A stretch of DNA of 64,000 bases. Origin: a bacterium. GTDB taxonomy: Bacteria > Patescibacteriota > Microgenomatia > Levybacterales > UBA12049. The translations under genes were made by a program, and so were the position numbers. Positions 27,174 through 35,582 of the stretch are shown here, piece by piece. The stretch is from the NCBI GenBank assembly GCA_021791545.1, contig JAJYWL010000001.1, positions 5,856-69,855 of the forward strand. The letters are read 5' to 3'. Numbering within the stretch: position 1 is the stretch's first letter; every line of letters begins with the position of its first letter. The notes beneath the pieces are model-generated. The model saw only the letters and a program-made list of their open reading frames with translations. It was not told where the DNA came from and did no database searches.

Positions 27174-28208
27174 TTAAAATTGCTCCAAAAATTCCAACTT
27201 ATTTGAATAAATAAGTCTTAAGTCGTCCAGTTCTAGTCCTTCTTTCATCATCATGCATCTTTCCGGTCCGAAGCCGAAAGCAAATCCTGTGTATTCTTGA
27301 GGATCAATACCTCCTGCTTTTAGTACATTAGGATGTACCATTCCTGCTCCGCCAAGTTCGAGCCATCCTGATTTACATACCTTGCATCCCTTGCCGTTAC
27401 AGACTCCGCATGAAACATCTACTTCAAACGAGGGTTCTGTAAATTGGAAATGATAGGGTCTTATCCTTGATTTTCTGTTTTCACCGAAGAATGATTTTAC
27501 AAAATAATCTAGAGTACCCTTCAGATGTGTTATAGCTATATCTTTGTCTATTACCAAACCTTCAAACTGATGAAACATAGGTACGTGGGAAATATCGGAT
27601 TGTCTCCTATATGTTTTTGCTATGTTTAACATTCTTATAGGAGGTTTTCTTCTTTGCATTTCTCTTATCTGCCCCGAAGATGTATGTGGAGTAAGTATCA
27701 TGGGACCATATTTAGGATGAACTTCTTCTTTTATGAAGAAGGTTTCCCAGTCATCTCTTGCAGGATGATTTTTGGGAAAGTTTAGTGCTTCAAACGAGTA
27801 CCAATCCCATTCAACTTCCGGATATCTTACTCTTTCGAAACCTATCTTCTCGAATATGTCGGTTATCTCATCAATTGCCTGTGTGACAAGGTGTAGATGC
27901 CCAAGAGGAGGTTTTATTCCCGGATTGGTTACATCAATCTTTTCTCTTATTTTTTCCTTTACGGAACCTTTTAGGGTTTTTGCCTGGTTTAGTATCGCTT
28001 CTTCTAAAGCCTCTTTTACTTCGTTTGCTAGCATCCCGAACTCTTTTCTTTTTTCGGGTGGAACTTTTGTAATTTTTTTTAGAGCAAGAGTTAATTTACC
28101 GTTTCGTCCTAAAAATTGTAGTTTTAATTCCTCAAGCTCCTTCTCCTCTTTGGCGTCGAGTATCAAGGGTATAGCAGAGTTTTTAATTGAAATGAGTTCT
28201 TCTTCCAT
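27174..28208 (-). CDS. pheS: Phenylalanine--tRNA ligase alpha subunit
   Basis: HPARD, FHQFEG, FTEPS, GFAFGFG. Confidence 0.97.
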   Translation of the reverse strand: MEEELISIKNSAIPLILDAKEEKELEELKLQFLGRNGKLTLALKKITKVPPEKRKEFGMLANEVKEALEEAILNQAKTLKGSVKEKIREKIDVTNPGIKPPLGHLHLVTQAIDEITDIFEKIGFERVRYPEVEWDWYSFEALNFPKNHPARDDWETFFIKEEVHPKYGPMILTPHTSSGQIREMQRRKPPIRMLNIAKTYRRQSDISHVPMFHQFEGLVIDKDIAITHLKGTLDYFVKSFFGENRKSRIRPYHFQFTEPSFEVDVSCGVCNGKGCKVCKSGWLELGGAGMVHPNVLKAGGIDPQEYTGFAFGFGPERCMMMKEGLELDDLRLIYSNKLEFLEQF

Positions 28209-28318
28209 TACTATATAAGAATAACAGATTCGAGCTCAATTTTCATTATATGGTTTTACAATTTTCATACACATTTAATTTGATTTTTTAATCTTAGAAG
28301 AGTAAACTACAGGCCATT

Positions 28319-29014
28319 ATGACACCAGAAGTTTTGAGAACTGAATCCGAAAGGCAACAATATGGAGCGGTTATCGCTTTGGGTAAGAACTGGAGACTTG
28401 ATGATGAGAAAAATGTTATAGCTACGAGAAGAGGTTCAGAGTCCAGGATATATTTAAGTATTGAATCGAAACTAACCGCACTTGCTGCAGCACATATGTA
28501 TGTTTCGGGTGAAACGGGATTGATTATTTTTTCAACCGGAGCAACGGCAGGAAAAGACCCCTTAACAGGCAAACCCTTTCCCACAGAAGCTGACATGATG
28601 AGAAGCTTTGTAAGAAGATTTTATTCTGAAGATCAAATTCCAGATTCGGCAATGCTTGTAGAGAATAATTCATTTGATACTGCAGGTAACGCGGAAGAGA
28701 TAAAAAAGAAATTCATAGAACCCATGAACATACAAGATGCTGCAGTTCTGACTGTGGGGTTTCATCTCCCGAGAGCGATGAGGTTATTTAGAAGCTATGG
28801 AATGGATATAAGAGAAGGATTATCTTCGGAAGAAATACTTATTTCTCAAGGCTCAGATCATTTAAATAGATATATTGAGGCATATCATCAAACAGAAAGA
28901 TATAAAGATCTGGTTAAATTGGAAAAAAAAGTAGAATTATTTAGCAGATTTGATAGAAAAGGTAAAATAGTAAGGTTCGTTACTACAAGATCAAGACACA
29001 GAAGCGAAGGTTAG
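28319..29014 (+). CDS. YdcF/DUF218-family protein
   Basis: IALG, IIFSTG, TEADMM, ENNSFDTAGNA, TVGFHLPRA. Confidence 0.8.
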   Translation: MTPEVLRTESERQQYGAVIALGKNWRLDDEKNVIATRRGSESRIYLSIESKLTALAAAHMYVSGETGLIIFSTGATAGKDPLTGKPFPTEADMMRSFVRRFYSEDQIPDSAMLVENNSFDTAGNAEEIKKKFIEPMNIQDAAVLTVGFHLPRAMRLFRSYGMDIREGLSSEEILISQGSDHLNRYIEAYHQTERYKDLVKLEKKVELFSRFDRKGKIVRFVTTRSRHRSEG

Positions 29015-29364
29015 TTGGAAGCTTTCGAGGAATCAATTATTTTTTTGAAAGTTTCTGGATCATTCATTATTATTTCGCTTAATACTTTTCTATCTAAGGC
29101 AATACTTGCTTTCTTTAATTGATTTGTAAGTTTGCTATATGAAAGACCTTCTTTTTTTGCAGCTTCACCTATTCTTGTAATCCATAAAGCTCTCATATCT
29201 CTTTTTCTGTTTTTTCTTCCTTGATATGCATAAGCTCTTGCGTGAAGTTCTGCTTCTTTTGCAACTTTTACAAGTTTAGATTTAGTACCTCTATAACCTT
29301 TTGTAAGGCCTAAAAGCTTATTATGTTTTTTCTTTGATATTGTTCCTCTTTTTACTCTCGCCAT
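29011..29364 (-). CDS. rplT: 50S ribosomal protein L20
   Basis: MARVKRG, RKRDMRALWITRI, LDRKVLSE. Confidence 0.97.
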   Translation of the reverse strand: MARVKRGTISKKKHNKLLGLTKGYRGTKSKLVKVAKEAELHARAYAYQGRKNRKRDMRALWITRIGEAAKKEGLSYSKLTNQLKKASIALDRKVLSEIIMNDPETFKKIIDSSKASN

Positions 29365-29365
29365 T

Positions 29366-29563
29366 TTATTTTGCTCCTAAAATTTGTTTTATTTTGTTTG
29401 CAAATTCACCGGTTAAAACTCCGGGTTCGCCCTGTCTTCTTATTCTGGATTGAGATTTGCTTGCTTTCTTATGTCTTCCATATTGATGAGCAAACAAAAC
29501 CTTTCCGGTCTTTGTAACCTTAAATCTTTTAGATGCTGCTTTCTTGATTTTCTTCTTTGACAT
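29366..29563 (-). CDS. rpmI: 50S ribosomal protein L35
   Basis: AASKRFKVTKTGK; lies between infC and rplT. Confidence 0.93.
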   Translation of the reverse strand: MSKKKIKKAASKRFKVTKTGKVLFAHQYGRHKKASKSQSRIRRQGEPGVLTGEFANKIKQILGAK

Positions 29564-30110
29564 CTTTTTGTCCTTTCTTTTCGGGAGAAATTAATATTAT
29601 TAATTTTCTTCCCTCAAGTCTTCTTTCCCTATCAACTTTTGATATGTCGGAAAGCATTGCTAAGGCTTTATCCAAAGTTTGGTGTCCAAATTCAGGATGA
29701 GTTATTTGTCTTCCCGAAAAGTAGACTACCAGTCTTACCTTATCTCCGCCTTCCAGGAACTCCCTTGCTCTTCTTATCATGGTCTCAAGGTCGTTCTCTC
29801 CCATGAAAGGTCCCAGTCTTACTTCTTTGGTTTCTGAAACCTTGGCTTTTCTTTTCTCTTCTCTATGTTTCTTTTCTTCCTGGTAAAGAAACTTTTTGTA
29901 GTCGATTATCTTTGCAACCGGCGGATTCGCCATGGGTGCTATCTCGACTAAGTCCAAGCCTTCGTTTCTTGCTAGATTAAGTGCTTCTAATCTTCCTAAA
30001 ACGTCAATCTGCTTCCCATCACTTCCTAAAACACGTAATTGGGGAGCAGATATTCTTTCGTTAACCCTGTAAAATTTTCTATTGTCCTGTCTCTTATGCT
30101 TTTTTATCAA
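29529..30110 (-). CDS. infC: Translation initiation factor IF-3
   Basis: VNERI, LDLVEIAP..PPVAKIIDY, KEVRL. Confidence 0.96.
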   Translation of the reverse strand: MIKKHKRQDNRKFYRVNERISAPQLRVLGSDGKQIDVLGRLEALNLARNEGLDLVEIAPMANPPVAKIIDYKKFLYQEEKKHREEKRKAKVSETKEVRLGPFMGENDLETMIRRAREFLEGGDKVRLVVYFSGRQITHPEFGHQTLDKALAMLSDISKVDRERRLEGRKLIILISPEKKGQKDVKEENQESSI

Positions 30111-31815
30111 TTTCTTGTTTAACCTTGTTAAGAAAATCGGAAACTTTTATCTTTCCCAAGTCCTCACCTTTTCTGGTTCGGACAGAAACAGACTCCTCAT
30201 CCGTTTCTTTCTTCCCTATTATACCTAAATATGGGACTTTTTGTAAAGTGGCGTCCCTGATCTTTGCTTGGAGCCTTTCGTTTCGTAAGTCTACGTCTAC
30301 TCTTACGCCATGTTCTCTTAGTTTTCCGGCCAGTTTTTCGGCATAATCATTTTGCTCATCGGTAATAGGAAGAAGAGCAACCTGAACAGGACTTATCCAA
30401 AGAGGAAAAGCACCGCCAAAGTTTTCGATCAAAATTCCTATGAATCTTTCAAGGGAACCGTATAGAACCCTATGTATGGCAATAGGAGTCTTTTCTTTCC
30501 CTTCCGAATCTGAGTATTTAAGATTAAACCTCATCGGCTGTTGAAAATCGAGTTGTAAAGTTCCTGTCTGCCATTTTCTTCCAAGAGAGTCTTTCATGAG
30601 TATATCTATCTTTGGTCCATAAAAAGCTCCTTCTCCCGCTTCTATCGTGTATTCTTTTCCGCTTTCCTTAAGTATTCTTTCCAATACTTCTTCGGCCTTA
30701 TCCCATACTTTTTCTTCTCCCATAAAATCTTTTGGTCTGGTCCCAAATCTGAAGGAATATTCGAGTTTGAAAATAGAATAAAATTTTTCAACCAGGGCAA
30801 AAAGTTTTTTAAATTCCCCTTCTATCTGATCTTCTTTTACAAATATATGTGCATCGTCTTGTCTAAATTCCCTTACCCTTAATAGTCCGTTCAATACTCC
30901 TGAAAGTTCATATCTATGAAGCGGATCTGTATCTGAGAATCTCAATGGGAGATCTCTATATGATCTGGTCTTGAATCCGAAGACTGTCATTGCGTTGGGA
31001 CAATTCATTGCTTTTACTCCGTAGACTTCATCTTTACCCATATCCGCAACAAACATATCTTGCCAATAATGGTCAAAGTGTCCTGATGTTACATAGAGCT
31101 GTTTCTTGTTAAGTATTGGAGTAATGACTTCCTGATATCCCTCTTCTTGATGTTCTTCTCTCCAGAATTTCAAAAGTTCGTTGTAAATAATTGTTCCCTT
31201 AGGAAGCCAATATGCCATGCCGGGTGAAGTTTCAGAAAAAAAGAATAATTCTAAAGCTGGTCCTAGCTTCTTGTGATCTCTTTTTTTTGCTTCTTCAAGC
31301 ATGTTGAGGTATTCATCAAGTTCCTTTTGGGAAGGAAAACAAGTTCCGTAGATTCTTGTCAACATCTTGTTCTTCTCGTCCCCTCTCCAATATGCACCTG
31401 CAAGGGATAAAAGTTTTAATGCTCCTATTTCTTCCGACGGGTTTTCCGAATGTCCTCCCCTGCAAAGGTCTTCGAAGTTTCCGGCTTTATATAAGGTTAT
31501 TTCTTCTCCTCTTTTTTCTATTTCATCGATAAGCTCAAGTTTATATGGATTATCTTTATATATTTCTTTGGCTTCTTTTGCATTTACTTCCCTTTTTGAA
31601 AATCCGTTCCAAGAAGGAAGAATTTTTCTCATTCTATCTTCAATTTTTGGTAAGTCTTCCTCTGATATGGGTTGAGTAAACTCAAGATCATAGTAAAATC
31701 CGTTTTCAATGGCAGGTCCAATTGTTAATTTTGTCTTGGGATAAAGTTCCATTACTGCCGCAGCAAGAAGGTGTGCGCAAGAGTGTCTTATGTTATCCAT
31801 TTTTCCTTTGTCCAT
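30094..31815 (-). CDS. thrS: Threonine--tRNA ligase (no TGS domain)
   Basis: RHSCAH, DLCRGGH, RDHKKLG, MNCP, FYGPKID, GSLERF. Confidence 0.97.
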   Translation of the reverse strand: MDKGKMDNIRHSCAHLLAAAVMELYPKTKLTIGPAIENGFYYDLEFTQPISEEDLPKIEDRMRKILPSWNGFSKREVNAKEAKEIYKDNPYKLELIDEIEKRGEEITLYKAGNFEDLCRGGHSENPSEEIGALKLLSLAGAYWRGDEKNKMLTRIYGTCFPSQKELDEYLNMLEEAKKRDHKKLGPALELFFFSETSPGMAYWLPKGTIIYNELLKFWREEHQEEGYQEVITPILNKKQLYVTSGHFDHYWQDMFVADMGKDEVYGVKAMNCPNAMTVFGFKTRSYRDLPLRFSDTDPLHRYELSGVLNGLLRVREFRQDDAHIFVKEDQIEGEFKKLFALVEKFYSIFKLEYSFRFGTRPKDFMGEEKVWDKAEEVLERILKESGKEYTIEAGEGAFYGPKIDILMKDSLGRKWQTGTLQLDFQQPMRFNLKYSDSEGKEKTPIAIHRVLYGSLERFIGILIENFGGAFPLWISPVQVALLPITDEQNDYAEKLAGKLREHGVRVDVDLRNERLQAKIRDATLQKVPYLGIIGKKETDEESVSVRTRKGEDLGKIKVSDFLNKVKQEIDKKA

Positions 31816-31854
31816 GAGTTGATTTTAGCAGAGAGTAATAATGAAGGCAATTAT

Positions 31855-33040: not shown

Positions 33041-33331
33041 TTAAAATTTGCCTTGTGTAATTCTTCTGCCCGCAATCATTAAAGCTCCTGCTCCAGTTAT
33101 TGCAGCACCAGCCGCTATATAATCAGGAGTTCTACCTTCGGCTACAAATAATGCGGTGTTTAAAGCTCCAAAAGTTGTTATGCCTCTACCCATCCAAGGA
33201 TTTTTAAAGTAAGCATTTTCAGTAGAACGACTAATATGATCTAGTGATGAGCTAAAAATTCTTCTAGCAGAAATTCTCCTCAAGGTACGAGTAGAATCGC
33301 TTTCATTATTAACTGGTTCTCTTTCTGTCAT
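33041..33331 (-). CDS. Hypothetical membrane protein
   Basis: 96 aa with Gly/Ala hydrophobic segments; TTGACA-type promoter upstream. Confidence 0.6.
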   Translation of the reverse strand: MTEREPVNNESDSTRTLRRISARRIFSSSLDHISRSTENAYFKNPWMGRGITTFGALNTALFVAEGRTPDYIAAGAAITGAGALMIAGRRITQGKF

Positions 33332-33385
33332 AGTTCTGAAGTGTAGCAGGTTGATATGGTAATGTCAACTATAGGACGTTTATTA

Positions 33386-33462
33386 TGGTGGGCCCGAGAA
33401 GAGTCGAACTTCTGACCTTTGCAATGTCAATGCAACGCTCTAACCAACTGAGCTACGAGCCC
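33386..33462 (-). tRNA. tRNA-Val(GAC)
   Basis: Reverse complement GGGCTCG...TTGCA-TTGACAT-TGCAA...TTCGACT...CGGGCCC-A-CCA. Confidence 0.96.
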
Positions 33463-33547: not shown

Positions 33548-33748
33548 CTACATGCGTACGCTAAGTTGATATTCTGCTCCTGGTGCCATGACTACTTCAG
33601 AGGAATAAGGATCCCTATATTCTTCTCTGTTAGGGTCTCCGAATTCTCTTATTAAACGTCTTGTCATAGCAGCGCTTTCTCTTTCCCTTTTTGCTTCCTC
33701 GCTTTCGTAAGCTGCTTTTTCCTGTTCCACTCTTTGTTCTGTTTCCAT
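33548..33748 (-). CDS. Hypothetical protein, third gene of the attenuated operon
   Basis: 66 aa, strong AAGGAGGTGA SD. Confidence 0.7.
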   Translation of the reverse strand: METEQRVEQEKAAYESEEAKRERESAAMTRRLIREFGDPNREEYRDPYSSEVVMAPGAEYQLSVRM

Positions 33749-33788
33749 ATTAATTTCACCTCCTTTGTTTGAAAATATTGATAGTCAG

Positions 33789-34256
33789 TTAATGTCTTCG
33801 CCTTCTATCACCATCTCCTGTTAACCCCAGTACTTTTTCTACCTTGCCTTCATCTCTTAGTCTAGATTTAGCAAGTACAGTAATTAGGGGTGTTCCGAGA
33901 TGTTCTCCTCGATGGTAATAAATAACTAGGCCTCTGGGATCATAAGGTTCTCCTGCAGAGAGCCTGTTTATACCAGCTCTTTTTGCTCCATCACCGTTTA
34001 ATATTGACTCTATTTCTACAGCAATGGCTTTATTTCCTCTTTTACTTTCTTCTTCGTTTAATCCTTGGGCAAGTTCTAATGCCACATTGTTACTTTGAAT
34101 AGCGGATCCTATAAAACATGGTCTTCCATGATCGGGAAAATTCGCTACCCTCATATCAAATTGTTTTCCTTTTGCAAGCCATGGCACAGTATTTCCATCT
34201 ACTCTTACTGTTTTGTCCGTTGATCTTGTTTCTGTCGAACGTTCTGTTGTTCCCAT
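33789..34256 (-). CDS. Hypothetical protein, second gene of the attenuated operon
   Basis: 155 aa, strong AAGGAGGTGA SD. Confidence 0.75.
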   Translation of the reverse strand: MGTTERSTETRSTDKTVRVDGNTVPWLAKGKQFDMRVANFPDHGRPCFIGSAIQSNNVALELAQGLNEEESKRGNKAIAVEIESILNGDGAKRAGINRLSAGEPYDPRGLVIYYHRGEHLGTPLITVLAKSRLRDEGKVEKVLGLTGDGDRRRRH

Positions 34257-34271
34257 AATTCACCTCCTTTT

Positions 34272-34754
34272 TTAAACTCCGTTATAACTGTCATTTATTT
34301 GATCAATGATTTCGGTTTTGGGTGGAGGTTGAAAAATAATCCTGTCTGCTCTGTCAATTTCTCCATGTTGTGCTAGTTCTTCTCTGAGAGAAAATATTGC
34401 TTTGTTTCTCAAATTTGCCAACAATTTTGAATCTGTTATTGTTCCTCCCTTTACCGGAACTTCTGTTCCGTCATCTTTTTCTTCCCATGCAGTAAAAGGA
34501 AGAGTGGGATCGGTTTCGACAATTCTAGTGAGAGTATCTACTCTATCTGCCAGAAACCAGTCCTCATTTAGCTTTCTTTCTAAAAGATAAGAAGGATAGG
34601 AAGGATCTATTGCATGATATGTGGGAACATGATCCCATTCATATACAACCATTTCTCCTCTTGACCCTTCTCTTTGCGGAGGGACTGTATGCTCAGCATC
34701 TACTATTCTTGCTTTGTTATGTATTAAATAACCATAATCTATTTCTTTACTCAT
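34272..34754 (-). CDS. Hypothetical protein, first gene of the attenuated operon
   Basis: 160 aa, starts just after the leader terminator. Confidence 0.75.
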   Translation of the reverse strand: MSKEIDYGYLIHNKARIVDAEHTVPPQREGSRGEMVVYEWDHVPTYHAIDPSYPSYLLERKLNEDWFLADRVDTLTRIVETDPTLPFTAWEEKDDGTEVPVKGGTITDSKLLANLRNKAIFSLREELAQHGEIDRADRIIFQPPPKTEIIDQINDSYNGV

Positions 34755-34767
34755 AATTCAAAAACAT

Positions 34768-34921
34768 AAAAAAACCTCCCGTTTGGGAGGTCTAAAGTTC
34801 TTTCTTAGTTTAAAAACTACGAACCGGACCTCCCCATAAGGGAGTTAATAAGGTTCATAATGTTCTTAAACAATTGATTTAACACAAATGCTATTGTAGG
34901 AAGAATAGTTGAGCTTGTCAA
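34768..34921 (-). promoter_or_regulatory. Promoter and leader-peptide transcription attenuator
   Basis: TTGACA-N17-TACAAT; uORF 34885..34817; terminator ACCTCCC-AAAC-GGGAGGT plus T tract; competing GGGAGGTC inside the uORF. Confidence 0.75.
34817..34885 (-). CDS. Putative leader peptide MLNQLFKNIMNLINSLMGRSGS
   Basis: GTG 7 nt after the -10; alternative in-frame ATG at 34858. Confidence 0.6.
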   Translation of the reverse strand: MLNQLFKNIMNLINSLMGRSGS

Positions 34922-34940: not shown

Positions 34941-35582
34941 TTATCCTGTCTGTGTAGCCGGAGTTCTCTCTCCGTTTAAAGTGAAGCTTGTTCCATGGCT
35001 TTTTGCCATGCTCCAGTAATCTTTTCTTGCCTTTTTGCTTGAAAAGACACTTAACCAAGATGCCGAATTTTCTACTTTCATTCTTGCGTTTCTGACAACA
35101 GACAACATCCATTCAAAGAAATTGAGATGATATTTGCCTGGATTTACCGGCATCTCATTAACAGTAACGTCTTTGAATTCAATCTCAAGTTCTTGGGAGC
35201 TCTTGGTGAGTCTTTGAAGTTCAATTATGATTTCTTGCATTTTGGCTTGAGTTTCCTGATGTTCACGCCTTGATGTCATTTGTTCACCATATAGAATTTC
35301 TCTTTGATAATCTATTCCCGGCATGATAGCTGGTTTTCTTTCTGCTTTTTCCTCTTTCTCGATCTTTTTCTTTCCTAAAGTAATAAATTCTCCTTGTTTG
35401 AGGTCTCCTTTTGATGGTTGTTCACCTTTGGTGTTTTCTCCAAGCATTTGTTTCCAAAGATCAGAGATCATTCCGTCAACGGCCTGGTCTTTTGCAGTCT
35501 TTTTTAAATCGGAGCCGAGGTCCCTTAAGGCTTCAATTTGATCAACGTAATTATGTGTTTTTTGGGTTTTTTTGCTATTCAT
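34941..35582 (-). CDS. Conserved CPR hypothetical protein (DUF5660-like)
   Basis: PGKYHLNFFE...SASWL...YWSMAKSHGTSF motifs; family number from memory. Confidence 0.7.
   Translation of the reverse strand: MNSKKTQKTHNYVDQIEALRDLGSDLKKTAKDQAVDGMISDLWKQMLGENTKGEQPSKGDLKQGEFITLGKKKIEKEEKAERKPAIMPGIDYQREILYGEQMTSRREHQETQAKMQEIIIELQRLTKSSQELEIEFKDVTVNEMPVNPGKYHLNFFEWMLSVVRNARMKVENSASWLSVFSSKKARKDYWSMAKSHGTSFTLNGERTPATQTG

Follow-up and report, generated by a model that had tools for sequence, protein, structure and literature searches.

The DNA considered here is a window of 64,000 nucleotides from a 775-kb genome (96% complete) of the bacterial order Levybacterales, and it carries on its minus strand a putative attenuator leader followed by three open reading frames (ORFs) for orphan proteins, ORF160, ORF155, and ORF66. 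The local gene order is trigger factor, DUF5660, the leader, ORF160, ORF155, ORF66, tRNA-Val(GAC), further genes, thrS, and pheS. We refer to the interval between the DUF5660 gene and the tRNA gene as the slot. Bacteria of the Candidate Phyla Radiation (CPR) are mostly uncultured and are thought to rely on other cells for amino acids, and how they sense and answer an amino-acid shortage is the question that such leaders address.

Table 1. Positions of the leader elements, the genes behind them, and the landmarks of the slot, in window coordinates
Feature	Position	Strand	Remarks
Promoter, sigma-70-type, TTGACA-N17-TACAAT	34893..34921	(-)	11 of 12 consensus matches
Leader ORF, predicted leaderless, 22 codons, GTG start, (M)LNQLFKNIMNLINSLMGRSGS	34817..34885	(-)	GTG 7 nt past the -10 box
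Predicted control codons 8-13 (N-I-M-N-L-I)	34847..34864	(-)	30 to 15 nt ahead of segment 2; position calibration and masked folding
Segment 1, 5' side of anti-antiterminator 1:2	34839..34861	(-)	folding
Segment 2, GGGAGGTC (34834-34827) and following arm	34816..34834	(-)	partner is segment 1 or segment 3
Segment 3, GACCTCCC, terminator 5' arm	34785..34792	(-)	sequence and folding
Segment 4, GGGAGG and 7 T, terminator 3' arm	34768..34780	(-)	arm 34780-34774; T run ends at 34768
Mini-ORF, 6 codons (MFLNYE)	34747..34767	(-)	begins directly after the T run; overlaps the ORF160 start
ORF160, orphan	34272..34754	(-)	one distant homolog
ORF155, small family, no Pfam match	33789..34256	(-)	predicted RelE/ParE-like fold, residues ~45-140
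ORF66, small family, motif (E/R)FGDPN-x3-4-Y-x-DP	33548..33748	(-)	homologs behind Ile/Leu/Val leaders
DUF5660 gene	34941..35582	(-)	upstream landmark of the slot
tRNA-Val(GAC)	33386..33462	(-)	downstream landmark of the slot

The leader and the genes behind it

An earlier note, made from the letters of the window alone, had described a promoter, a leaderless ORF of 22 codons, and an intrinsic terminator with a T tract just before the first gene, and all three are present (Table 1). The promoter ranks first among 23 promoter-like sites between 31 and 37 kb of the window. The start codon of the leader ORF is the GTG at 34885, not an ATG, and its stop codon lies at 34817. An offset of 6 to 7 nt from the -10 box is the mode of the leader family described below (88 of 154 leaders; range 4-14). 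The terminator (34793-34768) has a 9-bp stem followed by seven T residues and, by sequence, precedes the first gene. When the whole genome was scanned, 1871 promoter-like sites yielded 111 leaderless short ORFs, and the present leader is the only one of these with a hairpin and T tract. Rfam searches of the window at gathering scores returned five tRNAs only, with no riboswitch and no T-box.

The note had also proposed that a segment within the ORF is complementary to the 5' arm of the terminator and is itself sequestered in an upstream hairpin, giving the 1:2, 2:3, and 3:4 layout of ribosome-stalling attenuators. Folding of the alternative structures bears this out. The whole leader is predicted to adopt the 1:2 and 3:4 pairings at -43.1 kcal/mol (z -4.9), a value equaled by none of 200 shuffled sequences, and removal of segment 1 allows the 2:3 pairing to form. 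Taken separately, the pairing energies are -25.9 for the long 1:2 stem, -21.2 for 2:3, and -14.4 for 3:4. In masked folding, the antiterminator is favored only with the ribosomal A site at about codons 7-14 (6-13 to 8-15 depending on the footprint), and the terminator forms when the ribosome is absent or stands at the stop codon.

As the note had it, the three downstream genes are not recognizable, and searches of Pfam and PHROG returned no match for ORF160, ORF155, or ORF66. Its remark on uncommon, strong Shine-Dalgarno sequences holds as well: GGAGGTG stands ahead of ORF155 and ORF66, and GGAGG precedes 58 of the 746 mechanically called genome ORFs of at least 120 aa, spurious ORFs included. 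Three genes do lie behind the leader, but the combination is not fixed, and the idea of a constant three-gene operon was rejected; elsewhere their homologs appear behind such leaders one at a time or differently combined. Among 245 genomes, homologs of ORF160, ORF155, and ORF66 were found in one, eight, and four others, respectively, and they recur behind leaders in several genera. In another genome (G156), the slot again has an Ile/Leu leader, and the ORF160 homolog comes first after it, followed by an ORF66 homolog. All four ORF66 matches outside the present genome sit behind leaders rich in Ile, Leu, and Val codons (ILV leaders), and one ORF66 homolog is labelled Candidatus Levybacteria. 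The nine ORF155 matches in the eight other genomes comprise five with a leader directly upstream (four ILV-rich, one Lys-rich), two with no leader called upstream, and two weak matches without a leader. A large protein search found no homolog of ORF160, for which the Atlas gave no usable match and a model with a predicted local distance difference test (pLDDT) score of 0.39. No close relatives of ORF155 were found in a metagenome scan that had viral contigs outside its scope.

The leader family and its codon classes

A strict terminator pattern matched 141 of the 201 genomes of the order, and the reversed pattern, used as a control, matched none of them. Elsewhere the pattern was found in 4 of 17 other genomes of the class and in 29 of 301 genomes in a sample of the phylum, where many matches are two-way terminators. 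We extracted 230 distinct terminators; these loci were picked by the terminator itself, and part of the matches were left out. A promoter and a leaderless ORF accompany 193 of the 230, and a perfect complement of at least 6 nt to the terminator 5' arm lies upstream in 183. A window placed distally gave 14 of 229, and shuffled sequences gave about 7. The ORF and its complementarity to the terminator are conserved among relatives. In a DNA search of 40 relatives, matches were nearly all restricted to the terminator and often numbered several per genome, and conservation of the whole leader at the nucleotide level was rejected on this ground.

The same architecture occurs in records named Levy-, Davies-, Curtiss-, Woese-, and Roizmanbacteria, Saccharibacteria, and Dojkabacteria (among the matches listed, 80 of 130 stretches). 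Leaders that share the terminator also stand ahead of pheA-like genes in Rheinheimera and Alteromonas and ahead of ilvB-like genes in Chloroflexota, these genes being identified by eye from their translations. Many records titled 'uncultured Gammaproteobacteria' contain CPR-type leaders and neighboring genes, and the titles may be wrong.

To calibrate codons against pathways, we used the 154 of 230 loci that have both an antiterminator and a promoter-linked ORF, 30 of which have a recognized pathway gene first and an ATG or GTG start. Codons for the cognate amino acid occupy each position between 30 and 15 nt before segment 2 in 13-26 of these 30 leaders and positions outside this interval in 0-5. 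Aromatic codons make up 72 of 106 in leaders of aromatic pathways versus 7 of 119 in other leaders. The corresponding cognate and other values are 22 of 47 and 8 of 178 for Ser, 5 of 7 and 2 of 218 for Met, and 5 of 15 and 1 of 210 for Cys. Leaders and genes are paired as Thr with thrS; Phe, Tyr, or Trp with aro genes or pheS; Ser with serA or serC; Cys with cysteine enzymes; Met with homocysteine methyltransferase; His with hisG; Gln/Asn with gatC; and Ile with ilvA. The one misfit among the 30 is a run of Thr codons (locus L150:2082) whose following gene is HAD-like and was grouped with the serine enzymes.

Other mismatches pair a Met-rich leader with an orphan and thrS (L016:9948) and a Cys-rich one with an orphan and pheS (L167:1900). 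Gln/Asn leaders (QNQQN) precede gatC/gatA at L106:1501, L123:2051, and L211, which fits the fact that one enzyme makes both Gln- and Asn-tRNA. The Lys-rich leader ahead of an ORF155 homolog (L347, genome G065) has another terminator variant, lies outside the DUF5660 slot, and represents a probable Lys class. A core of N-W-H or W-H-Y at L061, L076, L078, L118, L144, and L162 probably marks a His class; several leaders of this type precede HAD, nucleoside hydrolase, M20 peptidase, or tRNA-synthetase-like genes. At L050, L087, and L104 the same terminator stands before metK with no convincing leaderless ORF, and an S-adenosylmethionine-responsive element is possible there.

Four to five promoter-leader-terminator units are stacked between DUF5660 and pheS at L016 (G039), L020 (G034), L116 (G061), and L146 (G059); they belong to differing amino-acid classes, each ahead of its own orphan or pathway gene. 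Small families that recur behind leaders (L116:2104-2871, L146:2455-3255, L107:1854-2300, L023, L026) include one with a DGHHR motif (ParB/sulfiredoxin-like by eye) and one that is nucleotidyltransferase-like (by eye). Genes for GNAT proteins, methyltransferases, GCS2 with a glutamine amidotransferase, and M20 peptidases recur there as well.

The slot itself was sampled by way of DUF5660, which is present in 185 of the 201 genomes, and hence independently of the leader. Of 150 listed matches we took 70 (the 30 best and 40 in list order), mostly skipping genomes whose slot was already in hand, and one slot was too short, leaving 69. At least 32 of the 69 slots contain a leader, compared with none on the opposite strand. 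The L411 slot has a leader that the detector missed and that precedes ilvE. Four or more Ile, Leu, or Val codons are found among codons 5-15 in 31 of 32 slot leaders, and many share a core equivalent to Leu12-Ile13-Asn14 of the window leader. The paired segments covary: a GGCGG-type terminator is accompanied by a GCGG-type segment 2 in 17 of 19 leaders and a GGGAG-type terminator by a GGGAG-type segment 2 in 13 of 13 (L396 reassigned by eye). In the slot-leader alignment segments 1 to 4 change together, the segments being off register in the DNA alignment. Masked folding predicts a clean three-state switch for 18 of the 32 slot leaders versus 4 of 96 shuffled sequences.

The first gene behind these 32 leaders is ilvA in two, ilvB with ilvN in four, a citramalate-synthase-like gene in one, and a methyltransferase gene in one; 23 first genes have no Pfam match, and one further gene was unscanned. 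The content of the slot is highly variable among relatives. In G156 the gene next after tRNA-Val(GAC) looks recombinase-like by eye (L339:2140-3270), as would be expected of an element integrated at the tRNA. The tRNA itself was considered as the regulated target and is probably not; its strand is opposite to that of the leader in 11 of 40 loci (by eye).

A putative Ile/Leu switch and its output

Family-wide conservation, covariation, and the calibration of codons against pathways argue that the window leader is, very probably, a classical ribosome-stalling transcription attenuator. Ile9, Leu12, and Ile13 are class-defining codons that fall inside the calibrated control window, and from this sequence context Ile/Leu is probably the main signal. 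The earlier note had named a shortage of Asn, Leu, or Ile, or alternatively ribosome-targeting antibiotics. The ILV class and the ilv genes in relatives favor its Ile/Leu part, and antibiotics are unsupported. Sensing of Asn is at most secondary, because Asn14 (AAC) belongs to the conserved stem in segment 1 and ILV runs are often filled out with Asn, although Asn and Met may contribute.

In the mechanism that folding predicts, segments 1 and 2 would pair when no ribosome is present and the 3:4 hairpin would terminate transcription. A ribosome that reaches the stop codon would cover segments 1 and 2, again leaving 3:4 to terminate. The Ile/Leu codons of the leader ORF would serve as a readout of charged Ile- and Leu-tRNA, and a ribosome stalled at about codons 7-14 would let 2:3 pair, so that RNA polymerase continues into the three accessory genes. 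The 2:3 pairing would also expose segment 4, which is positioned as a Shine-Dalgarno sequence for the ATG at 34767; the 16S RNA of the genome ends in CCTCCTT. Because 145 of 229 family terminators have an ATG or GTG directly after their T run, and given this 16S end, a second role of segment 4 in ribosome binding is likely. Three RNA runs of the same study as the genome gave 0 contigs on the window, which favors neither side. The six-codon mini-ORF that starts there is possibly coupled translationally to ORF160. Among the 145 starts, 27 open an ORF of at least 50 aa; most of these post-T-run starts in the family open ORFs of a few codons just ahead of the real start.

What the switch would control is suggested first by what the genome lacks. 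No ilvD, branched-chain aminotransferase gene (ilvE), or RelA/SpoT gene was found in searches that detected these in 14, 13, and 11 of 14 controls, respectively; ilvA, ilvB, and leuA were not searched, and pathway absence was tested for five families only. The bacterium thus appears to lack Ile/Leu/Val synthesis. Since ilvD, ilvE, and RelA were not found, the output of the switch would not be biosynthesis, and because the genome cannot answer in that way, a starvation response acting on translation is the likeliest output. We infer that the slot once held ilv genes, as it still does in relatives, and that the sensor was kept here with variable accessory genes now behind it.

The only handle on such an output is the predicted RelE-like fold of ORF155, which serves as a lead only. 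The model built from 28 sequences (pLDDT 83.6) has a core of strand-helix-helix-three strands-helix. Its best structural matches are RelE/ParE proteins, among them E. coli RelE (Z 6.8, the highest value; root-mean-square deviation 5.7 over 89 residues) and Thermus RelE (Z 6.0, deviation 2.9 over 79 residues). Sequence identity to RelE/ParE proteins is 8-18%, and no row reaches Z 8, the tool's bar. Judging from their titles, we take 14 of the top 15 structural rows to be of the RelE, YafQ, YoeB, HigB, or ParE types. HigB2 is ranked first by Foldseek (E 0.024), and an earlier model from nine sequences gave the same ranking. RelE-type mRNases have conserved basic active-site residues. No basic residue is invariant across the 28 ORF155 sequences, and the column equated by eye, in an inferred mapping, with the catalytic Arg of the third strand is Arg in 11 of 28 and Val in ORF155. 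Sequence profiles gave no hit to Pfam in nine family members or to PADLOC in 28, and a PDB profile search returned no related match.

ORF155 also differs from the RelE/ParE superfamily in some 45 additional residues at its N terminus. Members of the ORF155 family have no constant neighbor: here ORF160 lies upstream, the one other genome with an ORF160 homolog has no ORF155, and several ORF155 homologs come first after the leader. An assignment of ORF155 to AA_synth (PF06684; Atlas score 0.92, 162 shared features, usual cut 170) was set aside because it contradicts the fold searches. On the strength of these models, a ribosome- or RNA-directed activity of ORF155 can be proposed tentatively.

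A broader scheme can be drawn from these elements, which we regard as speculative and, taken whole, unlikely. The order, in which no RelA was found in the present genome, might run its starvation response through one recoded scaffold, the sensors having become docking sites for effectors where biosynthesis was lost. In the window, a shortage of Ile/Leu would then set free a RelE-fold protein that has no antitoxin, together with two partners, to slow down translation in the cell itself or to target the host cell from which its amino acids come.

Several observations weigh against an Ile/Leu attenuator whose output would be a starvation response acting on translation. Related genomes are not independent among either the family or the slot leaders, so the counts overstate the case, and 14 of the 32 slot leaders show no clean three-state switch in folding. 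Within its class the window leader ranks low, with four Ile, Leu, or Val codons among codons 5-15 (8 of 32 leaders have four and 23 have more), and it is the only one of the 32 with three Asn codons there. The resemblance of ORF155 to RelE is weak by structural Z score and Foldseek E-value, with no match at the sequence level. A look-alike can also mislead: mutation of candidate leader codons of Streptomyces coelicolor ilvB is reported to have left regulation unaffected (PMC1262725).

The Asn codons raise the foremost alternative, in which the same attenuator has come by drift to gauge starvation more broadly. Codons Asn8, Met10, Asn11, and Asn14 would then weigh as much as Ile/Leu, and Asn would report on the supply of Gln/Asp via GatCAB. 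The three Asn and one Met codons in or beside the control window agree with this, as do the presence of gatB with no asnS above the cut-off in the genome and the Gln/Asn-rich leaders before gatC/gatA in relatives. Asn14, however, belongs to the conserved stem, one or more Asn codons occur among codons 5-15 in 21 of the 32 slot leaders, and many ILV leaders of the slot have the L-I-N core in common, which makes a broad gauge improbable.

The leader could instead be a relic, a leaky terminator left behind after loss of ilv genes, with the orphans present because a slot beside tRNA-Val takes up foreign DNA. Such a history would suit the strongly variable slot content, the 37 of 69 slots in which no leader was called, the recombinase-like element after the tRNA in G156, and the weak ILV run of the window leader. 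Yet all parts of the leader are intact and its folding switch works, 23 of the 32 slot leaders before a first ORF with no Pfam match still keep their ILV runs and matched segments, and homologs of the three ORFs lie behind leaders in several genera. We therefore consider a relic quite improbable.

Any stall at codons 7-14 would yield the 2:3 pairing, so a sensor of ribosome-targeting antibiotics or of general translation stress could work in the manner of E. coli toiL, whose target is a toxin-antitoxin pair (PMC12121999). A toxin fold is possible for ORF155. The class is nevertheless defined by ILV codons and precedes ilvA, ilvBN, and ilvE in relatives, no resistance gene was recognized behind slot leaders, and an absent ribosome or one at the stop codon predicts termination, all of which leave this explanation very improbable. 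Least probable of all is a switch controlled by a ligand, tRNA, or RNA-binding protein (riboswitch, T-box, or similar) with an incidental ORF, for which the S. coelicolor ilvB precedent (PMC1262725) and the few same-type terminators before metK-like genes could be cited, but which is opposed by the Rfam result for the window and by a family whose nucleotide sequence varies while codon identity follows the pathway at a fixed distance.

If the window leader is an Ile/Leu attenuator, an auxotroph has kept a branched-chain sensor after the pathway was gone. More generally, the codon run of a leader could be read as the label of its inducing shortage, which would give an inducing condition for many orphan genes across the order. 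Those genes could then be tested in a laboratory strain, with no need to culture the organism itself.

Three observations concern the surroundings of the slot. In the window, thrS and pheS (28208-31850) are without an attenuator, though many relatives have one. A plus-strand ORF of 231 aa (28319-29014) between rplT and pheS has no NCBIfam match. An orphan of 96 aa (33041-33368) has a good promoter of its own (33368-33340) with an ATG 8 nt past the -10 box and is probably leaderless.

Comparison with known attenuators

The mechanism proposed for the window leader is itself textbook. Literature searches that combined attenuation with Patescibacteria, Candidate Phyla Radiation, or Microgenomates, and that covered few subscription journals and no supplements, found no paper on a CPR attenuator.

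The E. coli toiL ORF before topAI-yjhQ, a toxin-antitoxin pair, is reported to mediate a response to antibiotics via translational repression and Rho (PMC12121999). The window leader is similar in that an upstream ORF gates a possible toxin gene, and it differs in its intrinsic terminator, its amino-acid code, and the lack of a constant antitoxin neighbor. The predicted leaderless sensor ORFs of the CPR family resemble the mycobacterial 'ribulon' of polycysteine leaderless short ORFs, of which several per genome are coordinated by tRNA charging (10.1101/834739). The mycobacterial ORFs work by exposing a ribosome-binding site and respond to a single amino acid, whereas the CPR leaders carry a predicted intrinsic terminator and fall into classes for many amino acids.

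Branched-chain leader-peptide attenuators include E. coli ilvL, ivbL, and leuL. With these the present class shares an ILV-rich short ORF and alternative hairpins, and in 7 of 32 slot relatives a position before ilvBN-type genes. The ORF upstream of Corynebacterium ilvB-II is a further example (PMC10272879). The present case is unlike them in that neither ilvD nor ilvE was detected in the genome and orphan genes lie behind the leader. No match of the window leader to Leu_leader or any other ILV model of Rfam was obtained at E up to 1.

The scaffold is the same as in E. coli pheL-pheA and pheM-pheST, which we compared directly: a codon run, GGGAGG, and a CCTCCC-loop-G-rich arm-T run. In the CPR family, leaders of the aromatic class stand ahead of pheS, the position that pheM has in E. 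coli. Scored with the Phe_leader model (RF01859; gathering score 55 bits), pheL reaches 132 bits, pheM 75, and the window leader 26.7 (E 0.92), and 13 of the 18 leader loci scored besides pheL and pheM, the window leader among them, give sub-threshold matches of 26.7-39 bits. The window leader is not a member of RF01859. It has one Phe codon, is predicted to be leaderless, carries a segment 4 positioned as a Shine-Dalgarno sequence, and is followed by orphan genes. Unlike Phe_leader, the CPR leaders present a single scaffold that has been retargeted to many amino acids inside one order.

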